Numbered from the stretch's first letter, positions 8,920-28,295 are shown. The stretch: 64,000 bases of DNA from an uncultured Planctomycetales bacterium (GCA_964464475.1 CAYXGG010000002.1:93455-157454); one strand, 5' to 3'. Made by a program: numbers and translations. Notes: generated by a model not told the origin, from the sequence alone.

Positions 8920-8947
8920 ATTATATGGAAATGACGGGGTTTGTCAA
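8920..8947 (-). promoter_or_regulatory. consensus sigma70-type promoter (TTGACA-N16-TATAAT) upstream of pgk
   Basis: Read on the minus strand: TTGACA (reverse complement of 8942-8947), a 16-nt spacer, then TATAAT (reverse complement of 8920-8925). This sits about 55 nt upstream of the pgk start. Confidence 0.5.
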
Positions 8948-9016: not shown

Positions 9017-9907
9017 CTATTCACCTTGCGGGATAACGTAAAAAATTTCCAAAAAAGGTCGCTGGAGATGTTCCGAATTATCCAAAGAACCCAACAGGAC
9101 CACGGTATTGGGAACACCCTCCTTGGCAAGCCGCAACAGAAATCCTTCGCGGCGCATTTTCTCCCAATTAACCTCATCCTCCAAAAGATCCAAACCGTAT
9201 TGGGTAAAATTCAAAATAATGGCTCCGGAACGGTCTCCCTGAACCCCCACGCCCGAGGTCGCCACGATATTTTCATTCACATCGTGGGGATATTGAGAGA
9301 CCCCGGGGATTCCCCACGGTAATGTTCCTTTTTGAGCTTCCCGCCAGGTAGCCTCGGGAACTTGGGCAAGGTCACCTTTGCCTTTTCCCGCTTTCCAAGC
9401 CGGAAAAACACTTAAAAGGATCAGCTCCCCGGAAAGCAGATCGTCATCAGCATTTTGGTTGTCTATTTGCCTTACATGCAGCCTGGCGGCAACAACCTGA
9501 AGCTTCTTAGGTAACTTAAAAAAATCTTGAAAACGTAACAAAGAGCGAAACGTTCGTTCCGATGTCAACGTACCCACCTTTAATACAGAAAGAGCTCCAT
9601 AGTTCAAATCCTGTTTAAATTCACCACTGTCAATGAACGTGTCCTCGGAACCGGGCTTTAGCCAGTCAGTGCGATACACCTGAAGCGGTCCGGTTGACTT
9701 TGAAAAATCCTTGCGGACCAAAATATCTTCCGTCTCTTGAGCGCGGGATTCCAAGGCTGTAACGCGCTGCGAGACACCGCGTAACGTCTTAAGCTCTTTT
9801 TCAAGTCGAAACGCTCGACTACTGAGATGATCAATAAATAACGCCATAATGATCACCCCTCCTCCCCAAAAAACGACGAGCCAGCGCTGGGAGCTATCTT
9901 TGAACAT
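9017..9907 (-). CDS. hypothetical membrane-anchored protein (N-terminal TM plus coiled-coil)
   Basis: 296 aa. TM helix WLVVFWGGGVIIMALFI followed by a predicted coiled coil (LEKELKTLRGVSQRVTALESRAQETEDIL). No recognisable catalytic motif. Confidence 0.5.
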   Translation of the reverse strand: MFKDSSQRWLVVFWGGGVIIMALFIDHLSSRAFRLEKELKTLRGVSQRVTALESRAQETEDILVRKDFSKSTGPLQVYRTDWLKPGSEDTFIDSGEFKQDLNYGALSVLKVGTLTSERTFRSLLRFQDFFKLPKKLQVVAARLHVRQIDNQNADDDLLSGELILLSVFPAWKAGKGKGDLAQVPEATWREAQKGTLPWGIPGVSQYPHDVNENIVATSGVGVQGDRSGAIILNFTQYGLDLLEDEVNWEKMRREGFLLRLAKEGVPNTVVLLGSLDNSEHLQRPFLEIFYVIPQGE

Positions 9908-11288
9908 GTTCGGCTTTGCTTATCATAATCGGCGCGATACACAACCCTATCGTTATCCACAATAAATTGCCTAATTGCACAGAATAAAAATTAGTATCTA
10001 GGGCACTCTGGATCAAGAATCCGGTTAAGCCTCCCCACGCACCCCAGCTAACACACAGCAAGAAATCATCCTGAACGGATTTAATCGTACGCATAGCGTA
10101 TTGAAAAATTCTTCCCACAAGCCAAAGAAAAGCGGCCAACCCCACTAACCCCATCTCAGCAGTTAATTGTAAATAACAGTTATGTGGATAACCTCCCCAT
10201 TCCAGTTTCAGGTCCTTGGCCACTTGGGAATAGGTGTTAATGCCCGATCCGAAGATCGGGGAACGCTGAATAATTCTCCCGGCGTCCCGCCAATAAAGAC
10301 TCCGTCCTGAACCGCTATATTTCTTTAGAAAAGAAGTCACATACTCCTCCCAACCTGGATGTTGGGCCTTCGACTGAGCCATCTCTTCGACCGAAGAGCA
10401 AGCCATTTGACTCTCTAAACAATCAGAAAAGATTGAAATTTTTCGATATTTTAACAAGCCTACGGAAAAAAAACTGGCAAAAATAACAATCAAGACAACG
10501 ACTACGGCGAAAGCTTTGATTCGTTGAAAACCGATTAGAAGAATTGCGACAAAAAAAGCCAACCATGCGCCGCGGGAATAAGTTAACCCTAAACACACGA
10601 CCCCAGCAACCAGCAAGATGAGCGAAAGCACTCTGGCTACCTTCAGCCATCCTTCCTGACTAAATTGATATCGTAACCAAGATCCAATTCCTCGACGATA
10701 AACATAAATAAAGCTAAAAGCTAGCGAGAGGGCCACCACCAGATAACCACCCAAATCATTAGGATGTCGAAAAGATGCCGATACCCGACCTCCACCCAGA
10801 GGATTGTTCCACACAAAATCTTCTCCCATGATTTTCTGCCAATAGGCGTTACTTATCGTGATAACCGCCGAAATGGCAAAAACCGACAAAAAAACTTTTA
10901 AACGTTTTCGGGAATTAATGGCCTCAACAAAAATAAAATAAAAAAACGTCCATTCCCAAACTTTCAGCATAAAACCCCGAAAACTAAGCGATTTATACTC
11001 GCTAAAGACAAAAGAAAGGAACGCAGCCAGAATAAATGCGCCCAGAGGCCAATTAAGGGGATTCGTAATCGGAAGAAAAACCATCACCGCCCTTGCTCCC
11101 AACGTTGCCCTTCTCATTGAAAACAAAAAACAGCGCTTAACAAAAAAAGCAACCATCGCAACACCGAAAGAGAATTCCACGATGGCGATAGAAATAGGAA
11201 TAAAATAAATCACGAAACTCAGGGCCACGGCCATGATACGATCACATATCATCAAGGCTCGGGATGAACCTAATTCGGTATTCAGCAT
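9894..11288 (-). CDS. O-antigen ligase / Wzy_C-family polytopic membrane protein
   Basis: At least ten TM segments. The periplasmic loop carries the Wzy_C-type motif region (LTYSRGAWLAFFVAILLIG ... GYPHNCYLQLTAEMGLVGLAAFLWL). Confidence 0.7.
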   Translation of the reverse strand: MLNTELGSSRALMICDRIMAVALSFVIYFIPISIAIVEFSFGVAMVAFFVKRCFLFSMRRATLGARAVMVFLPITNPLNWPLGAFILAAFLSFVFSEYKSLSFRGFMLKVWEWTFFYFIFVEAINSRKRLKVFLSVFAISAVITISNAYWQKIMGEDFVWNNPLGGGRVSASFRHPNDLGGYLVVALSLAFSFIYVYRRGIGSWLRYQFSQEGWLKVARVLSLILLVAGVVCLGLTYSRGAWLAFFVAILLIGFQRIKAFAVVVVLIVIFASFFSVGLLKYRKISIFSDCLESQMACSSVEEMAQSKAQHPGWEEYVTSFLKKYSGSGRSLYWRDAGRIIQRSPIFGSGINTYSQVAKDLKLEWGGYPHNCYLQLTAEMGLVGLAAFLWLVGRIFQYAMRTIKSVQDDFLLCVSWGAWGGLTGFLIQSALDTNFYSVQLGNLLWITIGLCIAPIMISKAEHVQR

Positions 11289-11352
11289 AGGTCAATCCTA
11301 TGGTAAGAAGCGACAAAAAGCATCATTCTCATCATACTCATATAAACCAAAG

Positions 11353-12672
11353 TCATGTGCGATTCTGACGGAAACATTCTCGATGCCCTAGAACTATGGC
11401 CATCCCCAGACCTAAAGCGCTCCATAAGTGGGCCGATAACTGTAAAGAAAAGAAATGCGTATCAACAAAACTGTGCGCGAGAAAAGCCGTGATACCTCCC
11501 GTCAACCCGATAATCACCGGTTGATCACTCACAGCGTTTCCTTCTCTTCTTAAAAAACTCCTGACAGTGCCGTAGAAACGCACCAAGAGCCAGACAAAAG
11601 CGGCGAGCCCCAGCAACCCGTACTCGACCGCCAACTGCAAATAGCAATTATGCGCGTACGTAGGATCATAATAAGTTTCTCCGCGCAATTCACGACCAAA
11701 CTCAGCAAAGACCGGCATGAATGTATTCGGACCGTGACCCAAGAGCGGTCGATTCAACGCAAGTCTCCAGCTGTCTTCCCACAGTTCGCTACGCCAAATC
11801 AGCGTCGACAATAAATTTTGACGCTGAAATGTTTCCAGTGTAATAACTTTCTTAAAGCTTGTAAAGTAAATCAGCGTTCCAATGAGCGTCACCGTTAAAC
11901 CACAAATCAGCCAAGGCCACCAGCGACGCCGCGATACCACGGCCACGAAAAATAGCCCCACTGCCGTCGCCAGAATCCCTCCCCTGGAGAAAGTCAACAC
12001 CAGCACCCAACACGAAAGACAAAGAAACACCGCTGCCAGCCATCGGTCCCGCTTGCCAGAAGCGTTTAATAACATCGAAAACAAAACCGGAATGCCAATC
12101 GTCAAGTACCCCGCAAGCTGATTGGCATTATTAAACGGCCCCGTAACCCTGCCATCGTGAATCACCACGCCAGAAAAAATGTCTCGTTGATTGCCATAAT
12201 ACTGCCACAGTGCGTCCAAGACCACCGCCGCCATTGTCACGCCACCAACCCGTAAGGCCCATAACACTTGACGTTTTTCAACAAAAACACCGGCAAACAA
12301 AAAGAAAATAATAAACCATTCTAGGGTTTTAGTCCAAAACCCATGCCAGGAATGGGCTGGAGCGGTACTATTCAATAAGGATATCAATCCCAAAAATAAA
12401 AAAAGCGCAATGCTTGTGTTAAGGGGGGTTGCCGGGATGAACGTAGAAAGCCACGAAGGATTTGAACGCGCTGCCTGCGGCTGAAAATTCCTGAATAAGG
12501 TGCTTCCATTGCGAATCAACCAAAGCACAAAAGCCACGCAGACTGAAATCTCAATAGCCGCAATACTATAAGGCAACCAGAAAACGAGTAGGCAAAGAAA
12601 AATGGTTAGCCAATTAGTTATGTTAAGCATGGCAACGTGATAATTATTTTCTGATGAATTTATCAGAAGCAA
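11353..12672 (-). CDS. O-antigen ligase / Wzy_C-family polytopic membrane protein (paralog)
   Basis: Motifs TFSRGGILATAVGLFFVAVV ... AHNCYLQLAVEYGLLGLAAFVWLL parallel those of the gene at 9894-11288. Confidence 0.7.
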   Translation of the reverse strand: MLLINSSENNYHVAMLNITNWLTIFLCLLVFWLPYSIAAIEISVCVAFVLWLIRNGSTLFRNFQPQAARSNPSWLSTFIPATPLNTSIALFLFLGLISLLNSTAPAHSWHGFWTKTLEWFIIFFLFAGVFVEKRQVLWALRVGGVTMAAVVLDALWQYYGNQRDIFSGVVIHDGRVTGPFNNANQLAGYLTIGIPVLFSMLLNASGKRDRWLAAVFLCLSCWVLVLTFSRGGILATAVGLFFVAVVSRRRWWPWLICGLTVTLIGTLIYFTSFKKVITLETFQRQNLLSTLIWRSELWEDSWRLALNRPLLGHGPNTFMPVFAEFGRELRGETYYDPTYAHNCYLQLAVEYGLLGLAAFVWLLVRFYGTVRSFLRREGNAVSDQPVIIGLTGGITAFLAHSFVDTHFFSLQLSAHLWSALGLGMAIVLGHRECFRQNRT

Positions 12673-12699
12673 GCAGGGTGGTGGTTAGGGATCAAAAAT

Positions 12700-14124
12700 T
12701 TAATACGCCCCTTTTCCTTTAATGACGACAGGAAAAGTTTGCCAAAGGATATTCAAGTCCAGCCAAAAAGACCAATTATTAATGTACCAGACATCCCAAC
12801 GGACCAGGCGCGAAAAAGAAATATCACTGCGGCCGCGCACTTGCCAAAGCCCGGTAATGCCCGGACGCACCTCCAGACGCTTTAACTGCCGCAAATCTTC
12901 TTTTTCCACTTGATCCATGGGTAAGGGACGAGGGCCGACAAGACTCATGTCGCCCAAAAAAACGTTCAGTAATTGCGGTAATTCATCCAGACTATATTTC
13001 CTCAAAAAACGCCCGAATTTTGTGATTCGCGGATCACGTTTAATTTTAAAAATCGGGCCGTCCACTTCATTCCGACACTTCAAATTATCCAGCAAACCTT
13101 CCGCGTTGCTCACCATACTGCGAAATTTAATCATTTTAAATAACCGGCCCTTTCGGCCATATCGTCGCGAATAATAAAAAATCGGCCCCGGACTATCGAG
13201 TTTGATGGCCAAAGCGATCGCCAGAAAAACTACCGACAACGGAATCAGCAAAACCAAAGAAGATAAAATATCAAATAATCGTTTACCAAATTGACGACGA
13301 TAAGCGTCGACATTGGAGTATTCCAAAATAGGAATCAGCCCGATGTTATATTTTCTAAAATCACTCGCGGTCACGCCATACCCTTGTGGGATCACCCGGA
13401 CTGTCACGTTCATGTCTCTGGCATCCTCCAAAAGCTTGATAAACACTTGGCTATCATGGTGCACCGTAATGAACAGCATACTCACAAATTCTTTGGGAGC
13501 GAGTGCTGTAAAATCGGAAATTTTACCTACCACCCGGTGTTTATGGTCATCCGCGAGGCCCGTTTTGAAATCATCTAAGAATCCCACAACCCGAATTCCT
13601 AAATTCGGCCGCTTGCTTAACTCTTGGGAAAGCGCGACTCCGACTTTACCGGCTCCCACAATCAACGCGTTCCAATTGTTGTAGCCACTGACGACTAAGT
13701 ATTCGACAAAAATACGTTTCAAAACACGCCAAATAGACAAAAGCGCAACCATTGTGACCGTGGCCATCACAAAGATTGATCGAGGGAAATGCCCGATTTT
13801 CAAAACATACAGCGACGCGATCACGGCCAAAGACGCGATCCCCACCGAACGGATAACATTCCAAATCTCTACCCCTTCCAGAACTTCCCGGCGGGTTTCA
13901 TAAAGATTAAAAAGCCGATTGATTAATATGGTGGTTAAAATCCAGAAAACAAAAATGAAACGAAAAGGATTGGTGGGCTCCAACAACAGATGAGTGAAAG
14001 AAACCGGAAAGCTTAACTTGTCTACGTTTAAGGCGCAGGACAAATAAATGGCAAAGTACACGCAGATGACGTCAAATATCGTGTAAGTGGTTTGAATCGT
14101 GACAATGCGTTGCCGAGGGGTCAT
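12700..14124 (-). CDS. polyprenyl-phosphate hexose-1-phosphate transferase (WbaP/CpsE-type initiating PGT)
   Basis: N-terminal TM domain plus Rossmann-like linker. The C-terminal bacterial sugar-transferase domain contains PGPIFY...QRRVGRxG-like GRKGRLFKMIKFRSM and DELPQLLNVFLGDMSLVGPRP. Confidence 0.85.
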   Translation of the reverse strand: MTPRQRIVTIQTTYTIFDVICVYFAIYLSCALNVDKLSFPVSFTHLLLEPTNPFRFIFVFWILTTILINRLFNLYETRREVLEGVEIWNVIRSVGIASLAVIASLYVLKIGHFPRSIFVMATVTMVALLSIWRVLKRIFVEYLVVSGYNNWNALIVGAGKVGVALSQELSKRPNLGIRVVGFLDDFKTGLADDHKHRVVGKISDFTALAPKEFVSMLFITVHHDSQVFIKLLEDARDMNVTVRVIPQGYGVTASDFRKYNIGLIPILEYSNVDAYRRQFGKRLFDILSSLVLLIPLSVVFLAIALAIKLDSPGPIFYYSRRYGRKGRLFKMIKFRSMVSNAEGLLDNLKCRNEVDGPIFKIKRDPRITKFGRFLRKYSLDELPQLLNVFLGDMSLVGPRPLPMDQVEKEDLRQLKRLEVRPGITGLWQVRGRSDISFSRLVRWDVWYINNWSFWLDLNILWQTFPVVIKGKGAY

Positions 14125-14128
14125 AAAA

Positions 14129-14881
14129 TCAGACGCGCTTCTTAAATAAACGATCAGTTAGTAAAAAATAAATAAATTTTGAATTACCCACCAAATACCT
14201 TCGCCACAATCGACGCGGTTCACACAGCAAGCGAAATAGCCATTCGAAACCGCTTTGCTGCATCCAACGCGGCGCTTGTTTTTTAACACCAGCGACAAAA
14301 TCAAAAGCCGCCCCCACCCCCACCATCACCGGAACCGTCAATAATTCTCGATGTCGCGCCATCCAGAAATCCTGTTTTGGGGATCCCAGCCCCACCCAAA
14401 GGATATCCGCCCCTGAGTCCTCAATTTTCCTAAGAATCTCAGCGGACTCAAGTTCGATTTGAGCACGAAACGGTGGTGAAAAACTGCCCACTATCTTAAT
14501 CGTGGGATAACGATTTTGCAAGCTCGCGACCAGGAGGGAAAGCGTTTCCGGCGTTCCACCGAAAAGAAAATGTTTCAATCCCGAAGAGCACCCGTCCAAG
14601 CATATTCTCTGAAATAAATCAGGCCCATACGCGCGCGCTACCTGGGGAAACCCCTGCCTACGCCCCCACCAAACTACAGGCATCCCGTCGGGCGTTACCA
14701 TCTGAGCGGCGTTAACAATTTTTAGGTAATCCGGATTACTTCTTGCTTCAACGATGGTCGATACCGGAGCGACACAGACATACGTCTTGGTCCGATCGCG
14801 CGCCCAATCTTGAATCGTTTGCGCGGCCTCGCCAAGATTCGTGGCGCTTACTTTAACCCCCAATAAATCAAACCTCTGCAT
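14129..14881 (-). CDS. WecB/TagA/CpsF-family glycosyltransferase (N-acetylmannosaminyl-type transferase)
   Basis: 250 aa. MQRFDLLGVKV...VTPDGMPVVWWGRR matches the WecG/TagA family pattern. Confidence 0.8.
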   Translation of the reverse strand: MQRFDLLGVKVSATNLGEAAQTIQDWARDRTKTYVCVAPVSTIVEARSNPDYLKIVNAAQMVTPDGMPVVWWGRRQGFPQVARAYGPDLFQRICLDGCSSGLKHFLFGGTPETLSLLVASLQNRYPTIKIVGSFSPPFRAQIELESAEILRKIEDSGADILWVGLGSPKQDFWMARHRELLTVPVMVGVGAAFDFVAGVKKQAPRWMQQSGFEWLFRLLCEPRRLWRRYLVGNSKFIYFLLTDRLFKKRV

Positions 14882-14891
14882 GAATCAACCC

Positions 14892-16598
14892 TCACCGATT
14901 CAACACAAACACTGAATTTGTACCGCGAACATCAATGGGGACGCTGGCGAAGGCAGCATCGGGATAATCCACAACCAAAACTTTTCCGTACTGACTGTGA
15001 GACAGCATCAGCAACTCACGATCTTTAGCTCGTAATACTTCTGAAATCGGCTTAAAGAAATCATCGCGATGTGCCCGATATACTGAAACAGTTTCCAGCG
15101 CTAAAGACAATAATAGGCAGCCCAACAGCACCTTGGACGGTTTCAGCTGACACGCAAAAACCAAGACCATCATCAGCAACAACGGAATCGTCAGAAAACG
15201 ACTTTGATGCGAACCTAGCCACCAGACCGCCCAAAAGACAACAACCAGAATAGGTAATATCGGTGCGCTACGACGCCAAATACTGCGTACCAAATACACT
15301 CCAAACGGTCCCAGGGTCAAGAGGTATACTAATCCCACCGGATAATCATAGCGGTTATTGACTCCTTGTTCGGGGACCGCCAGCCACCAAAAATGTTCAA
15401 TAAAATCGCGCCAACTGCGCCCTGATCCGTACTGGTCACGCGTGGCGCGAATTTGCTGAGCTTTGACCACCAAAGAATCCCATGCAGAAGAATTCGTGTC
15501 CAGCCCGAGAGGTTCAGTCATGCCGACGGCAAAAGGAAACAATGGCGTTCCGGTATAAAAAATTGACTTTAGAACAAAAGGTCCCCCAATGAAAAGACTA
15601 AAAGATAACAACGCGAAGACCAGCTGCTTTAATCGATTCCCCCAACGAGAAGAATATTCCGTAAAGGTGGTTCCGGCAAAGCCCAGAGTCATGTCTCCGC
15701 ATCGAAATTTCTTAATTGCCCACACGATTACCGGTACGAAGACGGCAAGCAAACCAATTTGTAGCGGATGAAACGATTTGGCCCAAAGATAAAAAGTCAA
15801 TTCTAAAGCGGCCATCGTCACAGAGCCGGTTAAAAAACTTACAATAGCCGCCAAAAATAAATAGGCCAGCGTCAAATCCAACATCCCTGTTCCCAATTGA
15901 ATTCCAACAACATGCGACCCAAAAACCCCGGCGATAGCCAAAAATCCAGCCGTGAAATTCCCCCGGGTTAACAACGTCGTTAAATTCCACACAATCCCCA
16001 GCAATCCCAGAAAAATAATGAATTGCGGGAATTTATTTGGGAGGAAAGTTGACAGTTGGTAGGGTGCCAGCGCGAAATCTACGGGTAGCAAATACAAATC
16101 CGCGGTTGACCAAGGTAACCACGCAAAAGAACCCTGAATCAAATGTTGGCGCGGTACCGTCAGATGGTAATTGAGGACATCCGTCTCCTGGACTAAATGA
16201 GGCGGCAAAACGTGCGCATAAAAAGAAATAAATAATATCAACAACACCAGGACTTTAAACAATAAAAGCCAACATTTCATTCCCAGGTTGATGGAGTTAT
16301 ACCACGCTTTGAAACTTTCCAAACCGGATCGCAAGGGAATCCGCCATTCCCAAAAAGTTTTAATAGCCAACGCCGAAAAAGAAATCCAAGCCAGCCAGGA
16401 CGTCTGACCATGCGGGCAACGCAGGACATATAACTCCAGCCAGAAAGCGATATACCCGATCCACAAAAGGATCGTGGGCAAATGCGCCGGACTTAATATC
16501 CGCGTTCGATGAGAGTTTTGCATCTCCATAATAAATACACTAGGGTGATCAGCACCCAATAAAAGTCCGCACGGTGACTTCGCAAAAACTGTCGCCAA
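14892..16598 (-). CDS. hypothetical polytopic membrane protein (possible GT-C-type transferase or polymerase)
   Basis: 568 aa with at least twelve hydrophobic segments and a soluble C-terminal segment. No diagnostic motif recognised. Confidence 0.45.
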   Translation of the reverse strand: MATVFAKSPCGLLLGADHPSVFIMEMQNSHRTRILSPAHLPTILLWIGYIAFWLELYVLRCPHGQTSWLAWISFSALAIKTFWEWRIPLRSGLESFKAWYNSINLGMKCWLLLFKVLVLLILFISFYAHVLPPHLVQETDVLNYHLTVPRQHLIQGSFAWLPWSTADLYLLPVDFALAPYQLSTFLPNKFPQFIIFLGLLGIVWNLTTLLTRGNFTAGFLAIAGVFGSHVVGIQLGTGMLDLTLAYLFLAAIVSFLTGSVTMAALELTFYLWAKSFHPLQIGLLAVFVPVIVWAIKKFRCGDMTLGFAGTTFTEYSSRWGNRLKQLVFALLSFSLFIGGPFVLKSIFYTGTPLFPFAVGMTEPLGLDTNSSAWDSLVVKAQQIRATRDQYGSGRSWRDFIEHFWWLAVPEQGVNNRYDYPVGLVYLLTLGPFGVYLVRSIWRRSAPILPILVVVFWAVWWLGSHQSRFLTIPLLLMMVLVFACQLKPSKVLLGCLLLSLALETVSVYRAHRDDFFKPISEVLRAKDRELLMLSHSQYGKVLVVDYPDAAFASVPIDVRGTNSVFVLNR

Positions 16599-16601
16599 CG
16601 A

Positions 16602-17771
16602 CTATCGGTTACCATGGCGTTGCTCCCCAGAAATAATCAACTGACAGGCGGTAATCATACGCTGGGCGTATACTTCCGGGGTGAAATGGGCGAGATACAG
16701 CTGCCGGCTGGTTTGCCCCATTCTTCTTCTTAAGACAGAATCACGAGCAAGGGTGACAATTTTTGTGGCCAAAGATTCCCAATCACCTTTCGGAAACAAA
16801 AATCCATTTTCCAAGTCTTTTACGATTTCGGGAATGGCACCTTCTTTAGATGCAATCACCGGCAGCCCTTCGGCCATCGCGTGCAGCAAAACTAACCCAA
16901 AAACATCACGGTGAGTTGGAAAAATAAAAATATCATGTTGGCGAAATATTTCCGTACGCCGTGCGTCGTCCCCCACATAGCCTAAATAATCGACATAATC
17001 ATTTAATTTTTGATCATCCAAATATCTCTGTATTTCGTCACGTAACGTCTCCGATTCCATGGGACCAGCGAAAGAAAAGCGCACCTGCGGATACTGGGCC
17101 ACGACCTGAGGAATAGCTTTTAACGCCGTCCAAACGCCTTTAGAAACACTCAAAAAAGAAAAATACAAAACTTTTACGGTCGGGACCGCGTGGACGGATA
17201 ACGTACCGCTTTTGGGAGTTGGCAAAGTATAAGAATCCTCCACGCTCCCAGGTACAGCTAAAACCCGTCGGGTATCCATCAACCCTTCGTACACCTGACG
17301 TGTGGCTTCTCCGAGCACAATGCTGGCAGTGGTATGCTTCATGAGCCAACGAAACAGTTTGGCCTGTGTTTTTCCTAAAGATTCATACAAGTCACGGGCA
17401 TACTGCCCCATATCGTGAAGAATTATTTTAGCGCCAAATAAATGCCCTAAGAAACAGAATAAAACATCTTTCAAAAAAGGCATTTTATCAAAACTCATGT
17501 TATATAAAACATACTGCGGCCGACGACGAATCAATATCCACAGGTACTGCCCCAGATAAACGACCAGCTTCCAAAGTTTCCCCAGCGTTACCCTTTTATG
17601 TTGACCATACGTCCAGAAATGCAAATTAAGGAAAGTCACATCAAATTCCTGCAAAAAACGCGAGGACATCAACATTTTATACATCATGCTGTGACCAAAA
17701 TAAGGCGGCGGCAGAATACCGCAAATGAGAATCCTCGGTTTAAGCGTGTCGCTGGTTGTGGCTGGCTTCAT
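16602..17771 (-). CDS. glycosyltransferase family 4 (GT-B)
   Basis: C-terminal EGLPVIASKEGAIPEIV...NGFLF is the GT4 E-x7-E region. Confidence 0.8.
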   Translation of the reverse strand: MKPATTSDTLKPRILICGILPPPYFGHSMMYKMLMSSRFLQEFDVTFLNLHFWTYGQHKRVTLGKLWKLVVYLGQYLWILIRRRPQYVLYNMSFDKMPFLKDVLFCFLGHLFGAKIILHDMGQYARDLYESLGKTQAKLFRWLMKHTTASIVLGEATRQVYEGLMDTRRVLAVPGSVEDSYTLPTPKSGTLSVHAVPTVKVLYFSFLSVSKGVWTALKAIPQVVAQYPQVRFSFAGPMESETLRDEIQRYLDDQKLNDYVDYLGYVGDDARRTEIFRQHDIFIFPTHRDVFGLVLLHAMAEGLPVIASKEGAIPEIVKDLENGFLFPKGDWESLATKIVTLARDSVLRRRMGQTSRQLYLAHFTPEVYAQRMITACQLIISGEQRHGNR

Positions 17772-18636
17772 AAATGTCCTGCAAGATGTTTTTAATTCCT
17801 AGACGGGCCTCCCACCCCAATAAGGCCTTGGCTTTCGCCGAACTAACGCGCGAAAAAGCGGGTGCCCGGTCGGTATTTAATTGCGTTGTCGATGTTGAAC
17901 CCGTCAAACGGATCACCTCAGAGGCGATATCAAACAATGTCCACGCATCCAGCCCGGAGAGATTGATCTTCTCGAGCCTGGAGGGGGTTATGTTTAATAA
18001 GCCATCAAACGCCTCCAGCAAGTCAGACAGAGCTAACAATTGCAAACGCGTTTCCTGAGGCGCAAAAATATTGAGCGGTTGACCGGCCCAGGCCTGCGCG
18101 AATAAAACCGGCAACAAAGCTTTTTCCGCCTGGCCGGGCCCCACGATATTCACTGGCCTGACGATGGTCACGCACCGATTCTTGCCCAAACGCTCCACAA
18201 CCTCTTCGGCGGCCAATTTACTTCGAGCATAATCTCCCTGTGGATCCAAGGGAGACTGTTCATCAATATCGCGACCGCTGGATAGATAAACTTTAGCCGT
18301 AGAAACAAAAATGAAATGCCGACACGCAACAGCCTTAAGCAGATTGGCCGTCCCGTCCACATTGACCCGAACATAATCCTCATACGCCGCCTGACCAACA
18401 TGAGTTACATTCAGTGCGGCCAAATGAATAACCGCGTCAAAATTTTGATGGATTTGGAAAGATTGCGCAATATTTTGTTCAAAAAAATGGTTGGGCTTAA
18501 GTAGCGGAATCGCCGCGCCAGGACGATGATCGAGACCGAATACTTCATATTGGGGGTAAGTGCGCAAACGCGCGATGAGATGCCGACCCACAAAACCATT
18601 GGCGCCAGTAACCAGAATATTAAGCGGATTTGGCAT
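17740..18636 (-). CDS. NAD-dependent epimerase/dehydratase family protein
   Basis: ILVTGANGFVGRHL Rossmann motif and YARSKLAAE (YxxxK). Confidence 0.8.
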   Translation of the reverse strand: MPNPLNILVTGANGFVGRHLIARLRTYPQYEVFGLDHRPGAAIPLLKPNHFFEQNIAQSFQIHQNFDAVIHLAALNVTHVGQAAYEDYVRVNVDGTANLLKAVACRHFIFVSTAKVYLSSGRDIDEQSPLDPQGDYARSKLAAEEVVERLGKNRCVTIVRPVNIVGPGQAEKALLPVLFAQAWAGQPLNIFAPQETRLQLLALSDLLEAFDGLLNITPSRLEKINLSGLDAWTLFDIASEVIRLTGSTSTTQLNTDRAPAFSRVSSAKAKALLGWEARLGIKNILQDIYEASHNQRHA

Positions 18637-19381
18637 GGCGAAAGCGACGTCGTCGCTCGCGATCTTCCCATTGTTTCATTAAGACCGTAGCGCGATACAG
18701 CGATTCAAATGTTCCGGCGTCGGTCCAGGAAGATTTAAGGATCGAGTAACTTAGTTGCCCTAAGCGGGCATAGTGAGCGAGGACGTCGGTCATTTCATAT
18801 TCTCCGCGCGGGCTTTTTTTAATTTCTTTAAGATGATCAAAAACTTCCGGGAGAAACATCCACAAACCGGTGTTGACAAACGACGAGGACGGACGCTGAG
18901 GCTTTTCAACAATATCCGTAATGGCCTTACCTTTGAACGTCACCACCCCATATTTACTCGGGTCTTTGACTTTAGCGATTAAAATTTTGGCTTTATAGGT
19001 CGTCTTCTCACGTTGAAACTCTTCGACGAACCTTTTCACGTTTTCGCTGACCACATTATCCCCCAACACCACCATAAATTCTTCGTCCTTGACGAAATCT
19101 TCTGCCAGCATCAGAGCCGCGCCTGTCCCGCTGGGGCCGTCCTGTATTTCATAGCTAAATCGCGCCCCCCACTGCTTACCGCTACCCAATAACCGAAAAA
19201 AATCGCCGACATACTCACCGCCCGTCACAATCATAATGTCGCGAATCCCAGCGTTTAACAGTGTCTCCAAGGGATAGTAAATCATCGGCTTTTTGTAGAC
19301 CGGCAGCAAATGTTTATTGGTCACGCTCGTTAATGGTTTAAGCCGAGTCGCGGTTCCCCCGGCGAGCAAAACGCCCCTCAT
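18620..19381 (-). CDS. sugar-1-phosphate nucleotidyltransferase (RmlA/short glucose-1-phosphate thymidylyltransferase-like)
   Basis: MRGVLLAGGTATRLKPLT...KHLLPVYKKPMIYYPLETL. Confidence 0.8.
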   Translation of the reverse strand: MRGVLLAGGTATRLKPLTSVTNKHLLPVYKKPMIYYPLETLLNAGIRDIMIVTGGEYVGDFFRLLGSGKQWGARFSYEIQDGPSGTGAALMLAEDFVKDEEFMVVLGDNVVSENVKRFVEEFQREKTTYKAKILIAKVKDPSKYGVVTFKGKAITDIVEKPQRPSSSFVNTGLWMFLPEVFDHLKEIKKSPRGEYEMTDVLAHYARLGQLSYSILKSSWTDAGTFESLYRATVLMKQWEDRERRRRFRHAKSA

Positions 19382-20394
19382 GTTTTAGCCCCCCAATACC
19401 CGGCAATGTAGCGTTGCTCCATTTTATTTTTTAGTGGTCGCCACCAAGCTTCGTTCTGCCGGTACCATTCGATCGTTTTAGACAATCCTTCTTTCAAATT
19501 GACCCGAGGCTTCCAGCCTAACCGTTTCAATTTTGTGCAATCCAAGCTATACCGAAAATCATGACCCGGCCGATCCTGAACATACTTAATAAACGATTCG
19601 TCTTTTCGCATGGCCAATAAAATATCCCGCGTTAACTGCAGGTTGGTACATTCCTGGCTGCCACCCACATTATAAACCTGGCCGTCGCGTCCCTTGTCAA
19701 TTAACAAATGAATGGCGGCGCAATGATCTTCAACATACAGCCAATCCCGAACCTGCTGGCCACTACCATAAACCGGTACAGGCAAGCCGTCGATCAAATT
19801 GGTAATAAAAAGCGGAATGACTTTTTCAGGATAAGCGCGCGGGCCATAATTATTAGAAGCACGGGTAATGATGACCGGTAAACCGTACGTTTCAAAAAAA
19901 CTGTAAGCGAGTCGATCGCCACCGGCTTTTGAAGCGGCATAGGGGTTACGCGGTCGCAATTCTGACGTTTCTTTAAAACTGCCGCTGAGAATATGACCAT
20001 ACACTTCATCCGTTGAAATCTGGATAAATCGTTTCAATTTTTTCTGTTCACGAGCCTCCTGCAACAGCGTATAGACTCCCATGATATCAGTCTTAAGAAA
20101 AGCTTCCGGATCGCTGATGGAACGGTCTACAGCGACTTCGGCGGCGAAGTTGACCACGACGTCCACGTCGGTCATCACTTTCTTGACGAGACGAGCGTCG
20201 CCAATATCTCCCTTGATAAATTCAAAACCCCGACGAGATTCAAATTCTTTAAGATTATCGGGGTTGCCCGCGTAAGTCATTTTGTCCAACACGCGCACGC
20301 GCGGGTGCCCTTCTTTCTCATACACATAACGAACAAAATTACTGCCAATAAAACCGGCACCACCGGTAATCAGATAAGATTTAGGTGTGTTCAT
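19378..20394 (-). CDS. rfbB: dTDP-glucose 4,6-dehydratase
   Basis: YLITGGAGFIGSNFVRY, YAASKAGGD and a product length typical of RmlB. Start taken at the ATG at 20392-20394 (MNTPKSY); the ORF's upstream extension overlaps the neighbouring gene. Confidence 0.85.
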   Translation of the reverse strand: MNTPKSYLITGGAGFIGSNFVRYVYEKEGHPRVRVLDKMTYAGNPDNLKEFESRRGFEFIKGDIGDARLVKKVMTDVDVVVNFAAEVAVDRSISDPEAFLKTDIMGVYTLLQEAREQKKLKRFIQISTDEVYGHILSGSFKETSELRPRNPYAASKAGGDRLAYSFFETYGLPVIITRASNNYGPRAYPEKVIPLFITNLIDGLPVPVYGSGQQVRDWLYVEDHCAAIHLLIDKGRDGQVYNVGGSQECTNLQLTRDILLAMRKDESFIKYVQDRPGHDFRYSLDCTKLKRLGWKPRVNLKEGLSKTIEWYRQNEAWWRPLKNKMEQRYIAGYWGAKT

Positions 20395-21925
20395 AATAAT
20401 TTTTCTGGAAAAACAACTCCCCTTTCCTGACCTTTTCCGCGTAAGCGAGCGCCGCCCCAAATAGACTCCAAGAGGGAATCGCGTAATAGGGTAGTTCCCA
20501 GACTACCAACGAATTAGCCATGCCCCACCAGTACAAAACAATCGCGATAAACAAACACCCCGCCAACGAGCGCGCTTGAATCACGTTGATCATCATGCGA
20601 CCTAATAAAGCCACTAAAACGGCGATTAGTATAACACCGACCAGACCCGCGCGGTACAGGATGTGTAAAAAGGAATTGTGTGGCGCGATCCAGCCGTCCC
20701 GCAGCCATTCTGAATCACCCCAGCCTAAAATTTCCAAAGAAATCGACCGCTGTGGGTGACCAAAAGAAAAACCACCCCAGGCTTGCTGGTCTTTTAATTC
20801 TCGCAGCATGTCTCGCCAAACAAAAAGTCTAAACAACGTATTAATGTGCGTGGTGGCTAAGGACCTTTGCCCTTGTTTGACGTCCACTTCGCCCAAATCT
20901 ACTTTTTTCCCCTGCCCCAAATTAATAACAAAGGGATTAGGGGCCGCAGTGACCTGCCCCGCCGGGCTCTCCGTGACAGCAAATCTACGTCGAGCAATAT
21001 TAATATAGTTATCGTTGTAGCGACGCATTTGAGCATCCCGTTCATCCTTGTCCCGAGGACTATACGATTGCGTGGGGATATCACGCGGAGCATAATTTTC
21101 TTTCCCCATCGCAACTTGTAAGTCATACTCGGTAAAAAGCGTCTGGATAGTACGCCAGGAGGTAATAGCCTTCATCGCGCTTATATCATTAAATCGCTTA
21201 AGCCCTCCGCCAATTAAAACAACCAATAGGAGCGCCAGCAGCGCCCAAAGCCTCTTAGACCGGGAGGTCAACACCTGCAAACAAAAATACATGGCCAGCC
21301 ACGCCCCTACCAAAAGTAATCCGAGCAAATGAGATCGGCTTCCCGGCAAAAGCCACTGCCATTGCCAAGATAAACCCAACATTATCAGCATCAGGATCCC
21401 TTTCATAAAAGGATTCTTTGTTAACAAAACCCAAATGGCCAACAAAAACACATAAGTTAACCGGAAATAACCATCAACCGTGGCCCACGCGATGGCCCCA
21501 CTTAAAGCCAAAATCAATGCTACCCCCAACCACGACCAGGACTGCGATTGTCGAACAAAAACAAAAGCAAAAACGGCGACAAAAATATAGTAAAACAACG
21601 CCGCGTTACGCAAAGCCAGCACGCCTCCCGTCGCGTAACCACTCAGCGCTTTGGCCGCTATCCAAACCGCAAAAATGCCCAACAACCATTTCTGACGACG
21701 GGAGAAAAGGTCCTCACGAAAGAAACAAGGTAAGGCCAGCAGTGCGCAACAAAAAAGTAGGATCTCTCCAATAAAAACAGGAAAGGGCAGGCCGGGAAAT
21801 TCTAAATGCAATTCCGCGAAATTTACTTTCGCGACAGACGCGCCAAATCCATAGAAAGCCAACAGCGCTAACCCCAGCCGGTTTAAGTGTAGCTGCAGCT
21901 GCGAATTCTTAGGATTAGGCATCAA
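20381..21925 (-). CDS. Wzy_C/O-antigen-ligase-domain membrane protein with large periplasmic loop
   Basis: Multi-TM N-terminal half, a hydrophilic domain of about 170 aa, then WIAPHNSFLHILYRAGLVGVILIAVL, a Wzy_C-type motif. Confidence 0.6.
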   Translation of the reverse strand: MMPNPKNSQLQLHLNRLGLALLAFYGFGASVAKVNFAELHLEFPGLPFPVFIGEILLFCCALLALPCFFREDLFSRRQKWLLGIFAVWIAAKALSGYATGGVLALRNAALFYYIFVAVFAFVFVRQSQSWSWLGVALILALSGAIAWATVDGYFRLTYVFLLAIWVLLTKNPFMKGILMLIMLGLSWQWQWLLPGSRSHLLGLLLVGAWLAMYFCLQVLTSRSKRLWALLALLLVVLIGGGLKRFNDISAMKAITSWRTIQTLFTEYDLQVAMGKENYAPRDIPTQSYSPRDKDERDAQMRRYNDNYINIARRRFAVTESPAGQVTAAPNPFVINLGQGKKVDLGEVDVKQGQRSLATTHINTLFRLFVWRDMLRELKDQQAWGGFSFGHPQRSISLEILGWGDSEWLRDGWIAPHNSFLHILYRAGLVGVILIAVLVALLGRMMINVIQARSLAGCLFIAIVLYWWGMANSLVVWELPYYAIPSWSLFGAALAYAEKVRKGELFFQKNYYEHT

Positions 21926-23438
21926 CGGTCTCTGAATTGGCGGGGTTATTCAACCTGGCGGGCATTTTCCGAAAATAAGCGAACAAAAATCCCAACAAGC
22001 TCCAAAAAGGTATGGCTGTATAAGGAACTTCCAAAAATAAAGAAAACGAAGCTAAACCGATCCAATAGCAAAGAATGGCCAGCAACAATCCACCGGTAAA
22101 TGACCGTGCGGCAAGAAAGCCGCTCGTTAATTTTATTAACGCGACCATCAACACGCCGATCAATCCAATCCCCACCCAACCCGCGCGATAGACCATGTGA
22201 AAAAATGAATTATGCGGCACAATCCATCCGGCATCAATGATTTCACGGACATTCCAACCCAAGATTTCCAGTGATTTTGATCGCTGCGGGATACCCCAGT
22301 TTATTCCCCACCAAGCCCGCTCTTTTAAAAGGTCTCGCCACATGTCGCGCCAGATAAAAACTCTATAGAGGGCGTTGATCTGCGCAGTATCTAACGAGCG
22401 CCAGTCCATTGAAGAATTAATCGTGGACAGCAACCGATTATCAAATTGTTTGTCATGGATATCTTGAGGATTAAGCCCCTGTAATTTAGAAAGGACAACC
22501 GCCTCCAACCCCTGACGAACAGCTCTCTCGTTATTAAGACGGACTTCCCCCTTAAGACGACCATCAAATTGATCCGGTGTGAAAACCTCGTATTGGACTG
22601 GTTCAAAAATGTAGTAGGCTTCACCTTCTCGGATAATCGTATCGTAATAAGTAAATTTTGCTTTAAGAGAATCCCACCGTGTAAACGAGTTAATGGCATT
22701 ACGGTCTGCGAATACCAGCACGCAAACCAAACCCGCCAATAGAAAAGCCAAACAGCCTCCCAGCTTCACCATTCTTTTCGCGCGCCACATGCCAAACAAG
22801 AAATACACCGAGAGAAAACTAAGCGTTAAAAAATAACCTATCATATGCGCGCGAGTGCCCGTGGAGAAACCTTTATACTTAAGCAGGATGGCTACTCCGT
22901 TAGCGATAAACGCGGCCCGAAAAACGGGCTGCCTCATCCGTAAGGCAATGGCCAACAGAACCAAAAAAGCCGGCAGCTGCGCGTAATCCTGCAGACATTT
23001 TCCCCACAACAACGCGGATACAATGACCGCGATCGCAAATAAAATAACATTAGACCTATCTTTATTTCTAAAAAATTCAAAAGCCAACAACACGAAAAAT
23101 GCGTAATAAAACAACGCTGCGTTGCGCAAGGCCAAAACGCCATAGGCCGAAACACCAGTCAGCGCCTTGATCATAAGCCAGACCCCAAAAACAACCCAAG
23201 CCCAATGCCAGAGTTGCCACGTTTCAGCCATAGCTAACCGGCGCCATAGCCACAACAGGAACAGTCCAAAGAGCAATAATTCTCCAACAAAAATGGGCAA
23301 GCCAATGGCGGCCACGTAAAAATGTTTTTCCGCGAATTGACTTTTTAAACACCAATAAAGACCGGTAAATACCAATAAGGTGATTCCAGCGATCCGGTTT
23401 AAAAGAATAGCTAGCGGATTGGGTAAAGCAGATTCCAT
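21915..23438 (-). CDS. Wzy_C/O-antigen-ligase-domain membrane protein (tandem paralog of 20381-21925)
   Basis: Same architecture as its neighbour: WIVPHNSFFHMVYRAGWVGIGLIGVL and a similar hydrophilic insert. Confidence 0.6.
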   Translation of the reverse strand: MESALPNPLAILLNRIAGITLLVFTGLYWCLKSQFAEKHFYVAAIGLPIFVGELLLFGLFLLWLWRRLAMAETWQLWHWAWVVFGVWLMIKALTGVSAYGVLALRNAALFYYAFFVLLAFEFFRNKDRSNVILFAIAVIVSALLWGKCLQDYAQLPAFLVLLAIALRMRQPVFRAAFIANGVAILLKYKGFSTGTRAHMIGYFLTLSFLSVYFLFGMWRAKRMVKLGGCLAFLLAGLVCVLVFADRNAINSFTRWDSLKAKFTYYDTIIREGEAYYIFEPVQYEVFTPDQFDGRLKGEVRLNNERAVRQGLEAVVLSKLQGLNPQDIHDKQFDNRLLSTINSSMDWRSLDTAQINALYRVFIWRDMWRDLLKERAWWGINWGIPQRSKSLEILGWNVREIIDAGWIVPHNSFFHMVYRAGWVGIGLIGVLMVALIKLTSGFLAARSFTGGLLLAILCYWIGLASFSLFLEVPYTAIPFWSLLGFLFAYFRKMPARLNNPANSETVDA

Positions 23439-23652: not shown

Positions 23653-24780
23653 CTAACGAGCCGCGTTTAGTCCAGGAAAAGAAGATTTCATCAATTTGAA
23701 ACGAGTCGACATTTTCAGACCCATTTCATAGGCCAACGGTAAAGCTCCCAGACAAAATGAGCCCAAGAAAGACAAATAAAAAACCGTCTGAAACAATTTA
23801 CCCGAGCCGAATTCCTTCTGATGTTCTCGGGCCAACTGCCGAACCGCTGGCAATTCTTTTCGGGAAATTAACGCAAACAGCCTTTTGACATCCATCGTTT
23901 TTAAAGTCTTGCGACTCACCCGCTGGGCTCGTTCGACTTCTATTCCCCACTCCGGACGAACGTTTTGATAAATACGGCGCAAAAAATCTTTACCTTCCTT
24001 AAATTCCACCGCGGAAAGATTTTCTACCGCGTAAACGCATTTCCACAACAACTTCGCCGTCTCCAAACTGCAAGGCGCGGTGGTCAACCGCAGAATATTC
24101 TGGTGCATAATTTGCGACATTTCTTCTAGATCCCTTTGCCCCCGCGCCATAACGCTCTGCGACTGTTCATGAACTCGGATGGCAACACCCCACTCCGGAC
24201 GGGTCGTAATAAGAAATCCTCGCCGCACCAACTCAGACCATAATTCAAAATCCGCAGCGATACGGAATTTCTCGTTATAACCGCCCACCTCTTGAATGAT
24301 TTTCTTCTGCATCAGGCAACCGACATGATTAATAGGGGAAGCCACCAACGATCGCAGCACGATATCGCGAATGTCCTGTGGGGGTTTGAGCGGCTTTTTG
24401 ATTTTACCCTGTCCATTAATAATCACCGCCTGGCAGCTAACCACCGCATAATGCGGATTTTCATTAATAAAACTAATCTGCTTTTCCAGCCATCCGGGAA
24501 AAGCTAAATCATCCGCATCCATGCGGGCAATCCATCGCCCCTGCGCGTTGTGCAAACCAATATTCAAAGATTTGGTTTGTCCACAATTCACCTGATTCGT
24601 AATCACTCGAATGCGATCGTCTTTGAATGAGCGAATGACTTTTAACGTTGCGTCACTGCTCGCGTCGTTAACAATCAACAATTCAAAATCAGAATACGTT
24701 TGTTTTAACAGGCTGCGCAATGTATCCGGCAGATACTTGGCTCCGTTAAAAACCGTCATGAGAACCGTTAATTTACTCAT
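23653..24780 (-). CDS. glycosyltransferase family 2
   Basis: LTVLMTVFNGAKYL...DFELLIVNDASSD...ARMDADD gives the GT2 DxD and acceptor motifs. Confidence 0.85.
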   Translation of the reverse strand: MSKLTVLMTVFNGAKYLPDTLRSLLKQTYSDFELLIVNDASSDATLKVIRSFKDDRIRVITNQVNCGQTKSLNIGLHNAQGRWIARMDADDLAFPGWLEKQISFINENPHYAVVSCQAVIINGQGKIKKPLKPPQDIRDIVLRSLVASPINHVGCLMQKKIIQEVGGYNEKFRIAADFELWSELVRRGFLITTRPEWGVAIRVHEQSQSVMARGQRDLEEMSQIMHQNILRLTTAPCSLETAKLLWKCVYAVENLSAVEFKEGKDFLRRIYQNVRPEWGIEVERAQRVSRKTLKTMDVKRLFALISRKELPAVRQLAREHQKEFGSGKLFQTVFYLSFLGSFCLGALPLAYEMGLKMSTRFKLMKSSFPGLNAAR

Positions 24781-28264: not shown

Positions 28265-28295
28265 TAAGGACTAAACTTATTCCTCTGGTCACTAT

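Follow-up and report, generated by a model that had tools for sequence, protein, structure and literature searches.

The 64,000-nt stretch examined here, deposited under the name of an uncultured Planctomycetales bacterium (GCA_964464475.1, CAYXGG010000002.1:93455-157454; hereafter the window), carries four intact members of the WaaL/Wzy/PglL superfamily, designated A to D, in one sugar-coat operon. The reading that we favour, with a probability of about 45%, is that all four are ligase-type enzymes acting on acceptors other than lipid-diphosphate-linked glycans, namely lipid A-core, proteins or another envelope acceptor. This reading is slightly favoured by the presence of His instead of Asp or Glu at a catalytic position, by the lack of Wzx and Wzz in the window, by a PglK-like ATP-binding cassette (ABC) exporter, and because a further polytopic protein, U568, is not a polymerase.

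Four Intact Genes

The four genes are arranged as two pairs about 8 kb apart:

A, 9894..11288, minus strand, 464 aa; A-type WaaL-like (Wzy_C) membrane transferase
B, 11353..12672, minus strand, 439 aa; B-type WaaL-like (Wzy_C) membrane transferase
C, 20381..21925, minus strand, 514 aa; long-loop WaaL-like family, Omnitrophota-restricted
D, 21915..23438, minus strand, 507 aa; tandem paralog of C

Each open reading frame (ORF) is uninterrupted at these coordinates in the ORF listing, shows 8–10 hydrophobic segments in a crude hydropathy scan, and has dozens of homologs, spanning 90–98% of the length of the query. An earlier note on this DNA had described four separate proteins, and this holds well, since each is full-length with respect to its homologs; the possibility that A–D are fragments of fewer, frameshifted genes is ruled out by this same full-length match. 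Two of the starts are shifted in the databases: the deposited copy of C (P0001, 513 aa) begins at an ATG one codon in, at position 21922, and that of B (P0093, 425 aa) begins 14 codons in, at around position 12630. Between the stop codon of D and the ATG of C there is an overlap of 8 nt (ATGCCTAA), suggesting that the two genes are translated in a coupled manner.

C and D are 35% identical over approximately 500 aa (E = 4e-78), and A and B are more distant paralogs, with 26% identity (E = 2e-37). A recent duplication was ruled out for both pairs: C and D are 35–37% identical and each of them groups with a different copy of the pair found in a related locus (L001, see below), and A and B, at 26% identity, have in relatives two epimerase genes between the A-type and the B-type gene, in a conserved order.

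A and B Are Wzy_C Proteins and C and D Form a Remotely Related Family

The earlier note had assigned all four proteins to Wzy_C. With the Pfam hidden Markov model (HMM; PF04932, gathering cut-off 31.7 bits) this is true for A (81.8 bits) and B (88.2 bits), both above the cut-off, but neither for C, with a sub-threshold score (26.3 bits) and a match split by a large gap (residues 192–434 against a model of 149 positions), nor for D, which did not produce any Pfam match even at E ≤ 10; a remote homology is still supported for these two at the level of the family. Indeed, 39 of the 42 C/D-family members match Wzy_C at E ≤ 1 (best, 2.6e-12), and the C/D-family HMM gives D a score of 518 bits. Likewise, we compared with hhalign a C/D-family alignment (A1; 42 sequences, including D) to an A/B-family alignment (A2; A, B and 32 homologs, 34 sequences), obtaining a probability of 95.3% (E = 2.3e-8) for the region of the catalytic loop and final transmembrane (TM) helices, and of 94% over the full length with permissive settings. 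In these comparisons the C motif FRLFVWRDM is paired with WRxxxWxD from B, and PHNSFLH with AHNCYLQ. Conversely, the C/D-family HMM does not detect A or B anywhere in the window, indicating that the relationship between both families is remote. Together, the profile comparisons support that C/D are remotely related to the Wzy_C superfamily, as a separate family that is found only in Omnitrophota-type bins and is partly missed by standard HMMs.

All 216 homologs of B carry PF04932. When compared to the sequences in the PDB, the A/B profile matched the O-antigen ligase WaaL (7TPG, E = 3.4e-15) and a 610-aa oligosaccharyltransferase (9RMK, E = 8e-14), a code that did not appear in any relevant paper in a literature search; PDB sequence searches with B alone, with C alone and with the C/D profile yielded no match. 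Alignment to a WaaL reference, proposed as a check in the earlier note, is therefore achieved by the A/B profile, and C/D join it via the hhalign comparison to the A/B family.

A few other families were matched below their thresholds in NCBIfam. A and B score 55.8 and 71 bits against the IctB family (TIGR00947, cut-off 366.4), and B 70.5 bits against the PEP-CTERM-associated O-glycosylation ligase (TIGR03097, cut-off 188.1), with no match of C or D to either model. These weak IctB matches, together with the name "putative inorganic carbon transporter" given to some homologs and the drift of D below Pfam detection, are what could be expected if the extra copies were redundant or decaying, or had a non-glycan role such as that of an IctB-like transporter. 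We consider this very improbable: the IctB scores (56–71 bits) are far below the cut-off, every family-invariant catalytic residue is kept in all four proteins, a well-diverged second genome also retains the D/C pair and there is a fused member of double length, and all four genes are embedded in a glycan operon.

A Long Periplasmic Loop and a WaaL-Type Catalytic Set

The structural model in this family, obtained with AlphaFold2 (AF2), was built for C on 42 sequences (mean predicted local distance difference test, pLDDT, 84.3; predicted template modelling score 0.85), with pLDDT values under 50 only at residues 317–349. The model contains 12 membrane helices: nine TM helices are followed by a 172-aa hydrophilic loop (residues 246–417), the sequence PHNSF(L/F)H...G..G and three further TM helices. 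In a Foldseek search of the PDB with this model, WaaL 7TPG was the top and sole confident match (probability 1.00), albeit a weak one (E = 0.044, TM-score 0.40/0.49), and FtsW ranked second. We conclude that A–D are enzymes with the 12-TM GT-C(B) fold of the WaaL/Wzy/PglL superfamily, the AF2 model being that of C.

The architecture that the earlier note had proposed for the tandem pair, with an N-terminal multi-TM block, a hydrophilic part of about 170 aa and the PHNSF(L/F)H...GxxG motif, is indeed shared by C and D. However, the hydrophilic part, which had been described as a domain or large insert, is an enlarged periplasmic loop and not a foreign inserted domain: it is homologous to the catalytic loop of WaaL and owes its extra length to a variable segment. 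In the permissive hhalign alignment, residues ~267–346 of C stand out as a clean addition with respect to B, and the low-confidence stretch of the model (317–349) lies inside the variable segment, whereas the last ~60 residues of the loop are the most conserved part of the protein. Consistently, the spacing from R197 to R366 ranges from 125 to 360 aa (median 170) in the 18 C/D members measurable by motif search, and the Arg-to-His segment that follows the variable part is fixed at 50–51 aa in the 18 members measured; overall protein length in the family is ~460–950 aa.

The C/D family can be aligned across the whole phylum with 22 invariant columns. Residues that are invariant in alignment A1 (42/42, including D) comprise, among others, E54, R106, R197, R366, R393, H416, N417 and E477 (C numbering); if the N-terminus is cytoplasmic, as in WaaL, the helices of the AF2 model would place all the invariant polar residues of the family in the periplasm, which agrees with a general rule for these enzymes (PMC10920833). 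From these positions, a motif of the form ...FRLFVWRDM...PQRS.SLE...GWI.PHNSFLH..YRAG... serves to recognise the C/D type. In turn, R230, R294, H341 and N342 (B numbering) are invariant in alignment A2 (34/34, including A). In GT121 ligases the corresponding set is R191/R265 plus H313 (Meitil et al., PMC10920833); the two Arg bind the undecaprenyl-diphosphate carrier and acceptor activation is the role suggested for the His (PMC10920833). The same triad is found as R215, R288 and H338 in WaaL from E. coli and as R224, R298 and H349 in PglL from Neisseria (Schulz et al., PMC3643930). Counting along the alignment of the A/B profile to 7TPG, R294 and H341 from B correspond to R265 and H313 from the Cupriavidus metallidurans enzyme, and R230 from B (TFSRGA) pairs with the Arg in TRGA from 7TPG, which we take to be R191 without having counted it out. 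For the C/D family, hhalign pairs R366 and H416 from C with R294 and H341 from B, and the permissive alignment pairs R197 (GSRSH) with R230 (FSRGG). The Arg-Arg-His set of WaaL and PglL, whose presence the earlier note had left to be verified, is thus conserved in all four proteins, together with the catalytic motif H-N-x9-G-xx-G. Related inverting families of Wzy-type polymerases have Asp or Glu at the position of the His (PMC10920833); neither residue occupies it in these two families, where the His is invariant (H416 in C/D, H341 in A/B).

Since the A/B profile matches 9RMK almost as well as WaaL, at least one of A–D might be a protein O-oligosaccharyltransferase of the PglL/TfpO type, the locus being then chiefly devoted to general protein O-glycosylation with nonulosonic-acid glycans. 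The locus does make Leg/Pse-type sugars (genes for NeuB, NeuC and a CMP-transferase) and a PglK-like exporter is present. Leg/Pse-type sugars are often linked to proteins elsewhere. Additionally, the Arg/Arg/His triad is common to PglL (PMC3643930). We nevertheless think this explanation unlikely. The PglL_A motif PF15864, which separates PglL from WaaL (PMC3643930), is absent from all four proteins, including scans of A, B and D even at E ≤ 10. Likewise, there is no pilin-like or other obvious target glycoprotein gene next to A–D among the scanned ORFs, the neighbours being glycan-synthesis genes and pgk/tpi, and PglL genes usually lie outside of lipopolysaccharide (LPS) or glycan biosynthetic loci (PMC3643930), whereas A–D are inside one. 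A dedicated O-oligosaccharyltransferase among A–D is possible but unsupported.

The Surrounding Glycan Operon

The minus strand holds every substantial ORF of the window but one, with an even G+C content (43–52%), and Pfam scans of essentially all its genes (~55) delineated a co-directional glycan super-operon of about 55 kb. Besides A–D, the genes considered here are the following:

9017..9907, minus strand, U296; 296 aa, one N-terminal TM segment, weak CBM96 and DNRLRE matches, both below cut-off; last gene of the operon
12700..14124, minus strand, phosphoglycosyltransferase (PGT), a WbaP/WcaJ-like initiating polyprenyl-phosphate hexose-1-phosphate transferase; Pfam Bac_transf 232 bits plus CoA_binding_3, TIGR03025 404.6 bits, above cut-off
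14129..14881, minus strand, WecG/TagA-family glycosyltransferase; Pfam Glyco_tran_WecG 205 bits
14892..16598, minus strand, U568, polytopic protein of 568 aa between the GT4 and WecG genes; no Pfam or NCBIfam match
16602..20460, minus strand, GT4 glycosyltransferase and CDP-/NDP-hexose genes (epimerase/reductase, nucleotidyltransferase, 4,6-dehydratase), from Pfam; homologs found beside the C/D-type gene
23653..24780, minus strand, GT2 glycosyltransferase; Pfam Glycos_transf_2 118.9 bits
63485..64000, minus strand, MsbA/HepA/PglK-like ABC exporter, C-terminal part, cut by the end of the window; NCBIfam HepA_fam_ABC 219, MsbA_rel 217 and PglK 123 bits, partial matches

The WecG/TagA-family enzyme is the probable one for addition of the second sugar, and in the related loci that hold them its homologs always immediately precede the PGT gene; homologs of the GT2 gene are usually found immediately upstream of the C/D-type gene. 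The exporter is a candidate flippase for the lipid-linked glycan, and a full-length homolog of 611 aa is located directly after the C-type gene in locus L052. No member of the Wzx (Polysacc_synt/MOP), Wzz/PCP, Wza (Poly_export) or core-LPS families was found with Pfam among the ~55 window genes scanned. Similarly, Wzx, Wzz and Wzc were absent from ten unassigned neighbouring ORFs sampled from related loci, whose matches were a TonB-dependent receptor, two radical-SAM proteins, a YfhO-like protein and a GT2.

U568 was considered as a hidden fifth Wzy-like polymerase or flippase, and this was ruled out by hhalign probabilities of 1–4% to both WaaL-like families and by its ArnT/ALG/STT3-like fold. 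Using its AF2 model (pLDDT 87.7), Foldseek retrieved ALG9, STT3/OST, ArnT, ALG12, PglB and Pmt4 (probability 1.00, E = 4e-4 to 1e-2), from which the model identifies U568 as a GT-C(A) glycosyltransferase of the ArnT/ALG/STT3 kind. There are 190 homologs of U568 at E ≤ 0.001, the best 120 being 40–51% identical; a few of them carry PF26626, and U568 may represent a bacterial GT-C family not yet described. Its probable substrate is a polyprenyl-phosphate sugar synthesised by a GT2 enzyme encoded at 45200–46177 (minus strand; 325 aa), which has two C-terminal TM segments like the GtrB/ArnC polyprenyl-phosphate sugar synthases and whose small homologs adjoin U568 homologs in L001, L035, L061 and L072.

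The start of U296 overlaps the end of A by 14 nt, and its product includes a charged, probably coiled-coil stretch. In the organism of locus L001, a gene of 290 aa without Pfam match holds the same position after the A-type gene, a likeness by position; U296 could be a periplasmic partner of A. Downstream of it, the 139-bp gap from the end of the last glycan gene (9017) to the start of pgk (8877) contains a perfect 12/12 sigma-70-type consensus (TTGACA, 16-nt spacer, TATAAT; 8920–8947, minus strand). This suggests that pgk-tpi has its own promoter and that the glycan operon ends at 9017, the total of promoter-like sites in the region being that expected by chance.

Conservation and Duplication in Omnitrophota

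A scan of one genome per GTDB species yielded 128 C/D relatives, and 80 loci were retained (labelled with L and a number); all 80 belong to Omnitrophota metagenome-assembled genomes or to bins labelled Planctomycetales, Planctomycetia, "bacterium" or "uncultured bacterium". In turn, the homologs of C (92 in total), B and U568 with a named source are all from metagenome-assembled genomes of Candidatus Omnitrophota/Omnitrophica, and the window is hence read as coming from an uncultured Omnitrophota bacterium. C/D is a medium-sized family, with 511 proteins at E ≤ 1e-30 and 863 at E ≤ 1e-10 in a profile search of 1.84 billion cluster representatives. Its members are named at NCBI as "O-antigen ligase family protein" in some cases and as "hypothetical protein" in others, and approximately 40% of the listed homologs are without a precomputed Pfam match.

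ORFs were called in each of the 80 loci and named after the best homolog of each in the window. The genes are co-directional and follow a conserved order: GT2, C/D-type, 4,6-dehydratase, nucleotidyltransferase, epimerase/reductase, GT4, variable genes (often with a U568 homolog), WecG, PGT, B-type, two epimerase/dehydratase genes (not always present), A-type, pgk and tpi. The number of loci with each homolog, within 10 kb on either side, was:

4,6-dehydratase, 57/80
GT2, 45/80
GT4, 39/80
Epimerase, 36/80
Nucleotidyltransferase, 35/80
WecG, 31/80
PGT, 26/80
U568, 18/80
A-type, 11/80
B-type, 11/80

The low counts for the A-type and B-type genes are due in part to the 10-kb limit of the flanks. 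The closest relative is the organism of locus L001, with 46–81% identity across 14 syntenic genes; its 90.5-kb contig contains the D+C pair, followed by PGT, a Wzy_C gene of 432 aa (B-type), two epimerases, a Wzy_C gene of 508 aa (A-type), the 290-aa protein, pgk, tpi, secG and Opp. The four-in-one-locus pattern is thus common to a second species. Other A-type orthologs occur just upstream of pgk in L013, L017 and L050, as in the L001 organism, and other B-type orthologs directly after the PGT gene in L016, L017, L050, L059, L065 and L073, again as in the L001 organism. Among the loci that reach pgk, there are no A/B-type genes in L007, L021, L055, L062 and L068, one in L013 and two in L017; L050 contains both types before the flank ends. 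Accordingly, the A/B-type genes are optional at the pgk end of the operon, with 0–2 per locus. The A, B and C/D types constitute three old orthogroups, not recent copies. The grouping of four such genes in one locus had been regarded as unusual in the earlier note, and this claim is weakened: the arrangement is the standard glycan operon of the phylum and the pattern recurs in other Omnitrophota genomes, from which the clustering of the four genes is not a matter of chance.

Of the 80 loci, 76 have a single C/D-type gene, three (L001, L077 and L078) have a tandem pair, and one has an in-frame fusion. This fusion (L017, 8537–11560, plus strand) is a single ORF of 1007 aa, with no Ns, comprising two complete C/D copies that are 46% identical, each with the AHNSFL motif, and it is possible that it hints, in the manner of a Rosetta stone, that tandem copies work together. 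The exhaustive profile search also retrieved a double-length member of 994 aa (P0333), which may be the same protein. A neighbour-joining tree of the family has a star-like shape, the median identity between pairs of members being 34%; in this tree D clusters with the upstream copy of L001, C is in a neighbouring group with L014 and the downstream copy of L001, and the pairs from L077 and L078 are within-genome sisters. From these groupings and the fusion, the C/D-type gene has duplicated independently at least four times, counting that of L017, with both copies kept. Both C and D would be functional, as suggested by the invariant residues kept in both, their separate groupings with the L001 copies, the 8-nt overlap and the fusion in L017.

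C/D-type genes are the fastest-evolving of the syntenic genes, with 33–36% identity to their L001 orthologs versus 46–81% for the 14 neighbours. This divergence would be expected from a division of labour of the Wzx/Wzy type, in which C and D would be polymerases for two linkages or repeat units, and A and B the ligases to lipid A-core and/or protein. We hold this to be a serious possibility, short of an even chance. Polymerases are the most diverse class of these enzymes (PMC10920833), and the star-like tree, the location inside the variable region of sugar and glycosyltransferase genes and the recurrent tandem duplication of C/D point in the same direction; likewise, the direct sequence similarity to the solved WaaL and O-oligosaccharyltransferase is that of A/B. 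Additionally, both B and A are present in the three genomes out of three that have two C/D copies (the window, the L001 organism and L017), and neither of them in the five single-copy loci that reach pgk, which fits with two glycans, each having a polymerase and a ligase. However, this correlation stands on two independent lineages only, and C/D contain the invariant His-Asn where inverting polymerases have Asp or Glu (PMC10920833). Moreover, Wzx and Wzz were not detected in the window or in the ten sampled ORFs of related loci, and an ABC-type flippase candidate is present instead.

Proposed Pathway

Under the ligase-type reading, a lipid-diphosphate-linked oligosaccharide would be begun by the WbaP-like phosphoglycosyltransferase and extended by the WecG, GT4 and GT2 enzymes from CDP-hexose and CMP-ulosonic-acid sugars made by the locus. 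The oligosaccharide would then be flipped by the MsbA/PglK-like ABC exporter, possibly be decorated by the GT-C(A) enzyme U568 and, bound at the periplasmic face as a lipid-diphosphate-linked glycan, be transferred en bloc by the WaaL-like enzymes A–D. The specificity for the acceptor, the glycan or both would vary among the three orthogroups, and C and D would form a subfunctionalised pair whose members possibly act jointly.

Several observations weigh against the ligase-type reading. The distinction between ligases, polymerases and O-oligosaccharyltransferases is not reliably made from sequence, and the rule of His versus Asp/Glu is a correlation taken from one classification paper (PMC10920833). 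The likeness between the C model and WaaL in Foldseek is weak (E = 0.044, TM-score 0.40–0.49). C/D-type genes evolve faster than any other syntenic gene (33–36% vs. 46–81%), and this fast evolution, the star-like tree, the place among variable sugar genes and the repeated duplication are typical traits of Wzy polymerases; the invariant E54 and E477 of the family could act as a base. Besides, Wzx, Wzz or a separate polymerase may be located outside of the 64-kb window, and within it U543, a polytopic protein described below, and several large genes without Pfam match are without an assigned role. Finally, there is no core-LPS (waa-type) gene or obvious glycoprotein target beside any of A–D.

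Comparison with Known Systems

The closest resemblance is to WaaL (CAZy GT121; 7TPG from C. metallidurans), which shares with A–D the 12-TM GT-C(B) fold with a catalytic periplasmic loop before the last three TM helices, as well as the two Arg and the His-Asn, aligned residue for residue in A/B and via hhalign in C/D. Conversely, the loop of C/D is about twice as long (172 aa, versus ~72–94 aa in B and A, measured between the predicted TM segments on either side), has a variable, partly disordered segment, and is accompanied by the extra invariant residues E54, R106, R393 and E477; C/D also score under Pfam thresholds and are found in Omnitrophota-type bins only, and the A–D genes are in a glycan-synthesis operon instead of a core-LPS cluster.

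PglL/TfpO/PglS O-linking oligosaccharyltransferases are of the same superfamily and share with A–D the Arg/Arg/His triad (PMC3643930), and the A/B profile matches 9RMK. They differ in that A–D lack PF15864, a long C-terminal extension and an adjacent pilin or target gene, and lie inside a biosynthetic operon. Genomes with two or three PglL/TfpO/PglS-like enzymes are known, for instance in Acinetobacter.

With Wzy polymerases (the inverting bacterial polysaccharide polymerases, BP-Pol, CAZy clan GT-C1) there is a common fold class, conserved outer-face Arg residues, a long C-proximal loop, a fast divergence and a place among variable glycosyltransferase genes. However, A–D have an invariant His at the catalytic position, the window is without a detected Wzx or Wzz, and C/D can be aligned phylum-wide with their 22 invariant columns, which is unusual for Wzy. 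Lastly, the WadA-type bimodular ligases of Brucella and Mesorhizobium (a GT25 fused to a GT121) resemble C/D in coupling a soluble glycosyltransferase to a ligase-type enzyme, as here a GT2 adjoins the C/D-type gene, and coupled action has been suggested for WadA (PMC10920833). In the window these are separate genes, the glycosyltransferase is a GT2 and not a GT25, and a coupling is deduced from adjacency only.

The layout with four enzymes is the usual one of a widely shared Omnitrophota glycan operon and, as a variant of a known system, is new to a modest degree. Other genomes are also known to carry several WaaL/PglL-like enzymes, and several C/D members were already annotated as O-antigen ligase family proteins. 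The modest novelty lies in a divergent long-loop subfamily, found in Omnitrophota-type bins only and partly missed by standard HMMs; in the conserved pairing of C/D with a GT2 gene, along with recurrent tandem duplication and one natural fusion; and in up to four superfamily members in one operon without detected Wzx/Wzz. It is doubtful, in our opinion, that C/D constitute a new, Omnitrophota-restricted family of lipid-diphosphate-glycan transferases, perhaps a CAZy GT family of its own, with a hypervariable, expandable loop that selects the acceptor and paralogs that form an obligate pair; the fusions of L017 (1007 aa) and P0333 (994 aa) would then be Rosetta-stone evidence of this pairing. 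If this were true, C/D together with A and B would offer several parallel routes to display nonulosonic-acid glycans on lipid and protein acceptors.

Omnitrophota are abundant, uncultured and often ultra-small bacteria, possibly attached to hosts, and to our knowledge nothing experimental is known of their surface; a literature search for Omnitrophota and O-antigen returned incidental mentions only. The comparisons suggest that one glycan operon, next to pgk-tpi, is common to many members of the phylum, and they single out a defined group of candidate genes for O-antigen ligation, polymerisation or protein O-glycosylation in these organisms. Likewise, glycoengineering could benefit from ligase-type enzymes that have unusual loops and nonulosonic-acid substrates, and the general understanding of how such enzymes work is unchanged.

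Other Genes of the Window

Two large blocks in the operon would make acidic sugars. The first one (26532–35823, minus strand) comprises genes for a GFO/IDH oxidoreductase, a methyltransferase, a SIS isomerase, a transaldolase/FSA, an HpcH/HpaI pyruvate aldolase, a HAD phosphatase fusion, two SDRs, a CMP-Kdo-synthetase-like cytidylyltransferase and a 2-hydroxyacid dehydrogenase. The block resembles a pathway leading to a CMP-activated 3-deoxy-2-ulosonic acid via a class II pyruvate aldolase, and not via a synthase of the NeuB/KdsA type; large parts of it are found again, upstream of the C/D-type gene, in L001, L009, L021, L039, L052 and L069. The second block (46182–56768, minus strand) is a nonulosonic-acid cluster of the legionaminic/pseudaminic type, with a DegT aminotransferase, a CBS-nucleotidyltransferase, a 409-aa protein without Pfam match, a HisH/HisF-like amidotransferase pair, a PglD-like acetyltransferase, a NeuC-like 2-epimerase, NeuB, an SDR, a CMP-transferase and a GFO oxidoreductase.

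Also encoded in the operon are several GT2 enzymes, as well as two large polytopic proteins and four more large proteins without Pfam match. One of the polytopic proteins, U543 (40610–42241, minus strand), has nine predicted N-terminal TM segments and a soluble C-terminal part of ~200 aa, with no Pfam match at E ≤ 10, and is possibly a second GT-C(A)-like enzyme. Three large soluble proteins without significant Pfam match (634, 691 and 536 aa) are encoded in the operon at 36719–40613 and 42243–43853 (minus strand); homologs of the 634-aa protein occur in 12 other Omnitrophota loci and those of the 691-aa protein in four, and the three may be novel glycosyltransferases or modifying enzymes. Among the sugar genes, a 486-aa protein (43825–45285, minus strand) joins an N-terminal nitroreductase domain to an unannotated C-terminal part of ~280 aa, a fusion without homologs in the 80 related loci.

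Only one sizeable ORF on the plus strand is free of a longer minus-strand overlap (36255–36722, 155 aa); it breaks the co-directional operon, and has a weak match to SRPBCC/Polyketide_cyc (E = 0.0035, below cut-off). Outside of the operon, the gene for a TPR-repeat protein with a DUF3859 domain (2572–3738, minus strand) separates the two permease genes in the operon of an Opp-type ABC peptide transporter.

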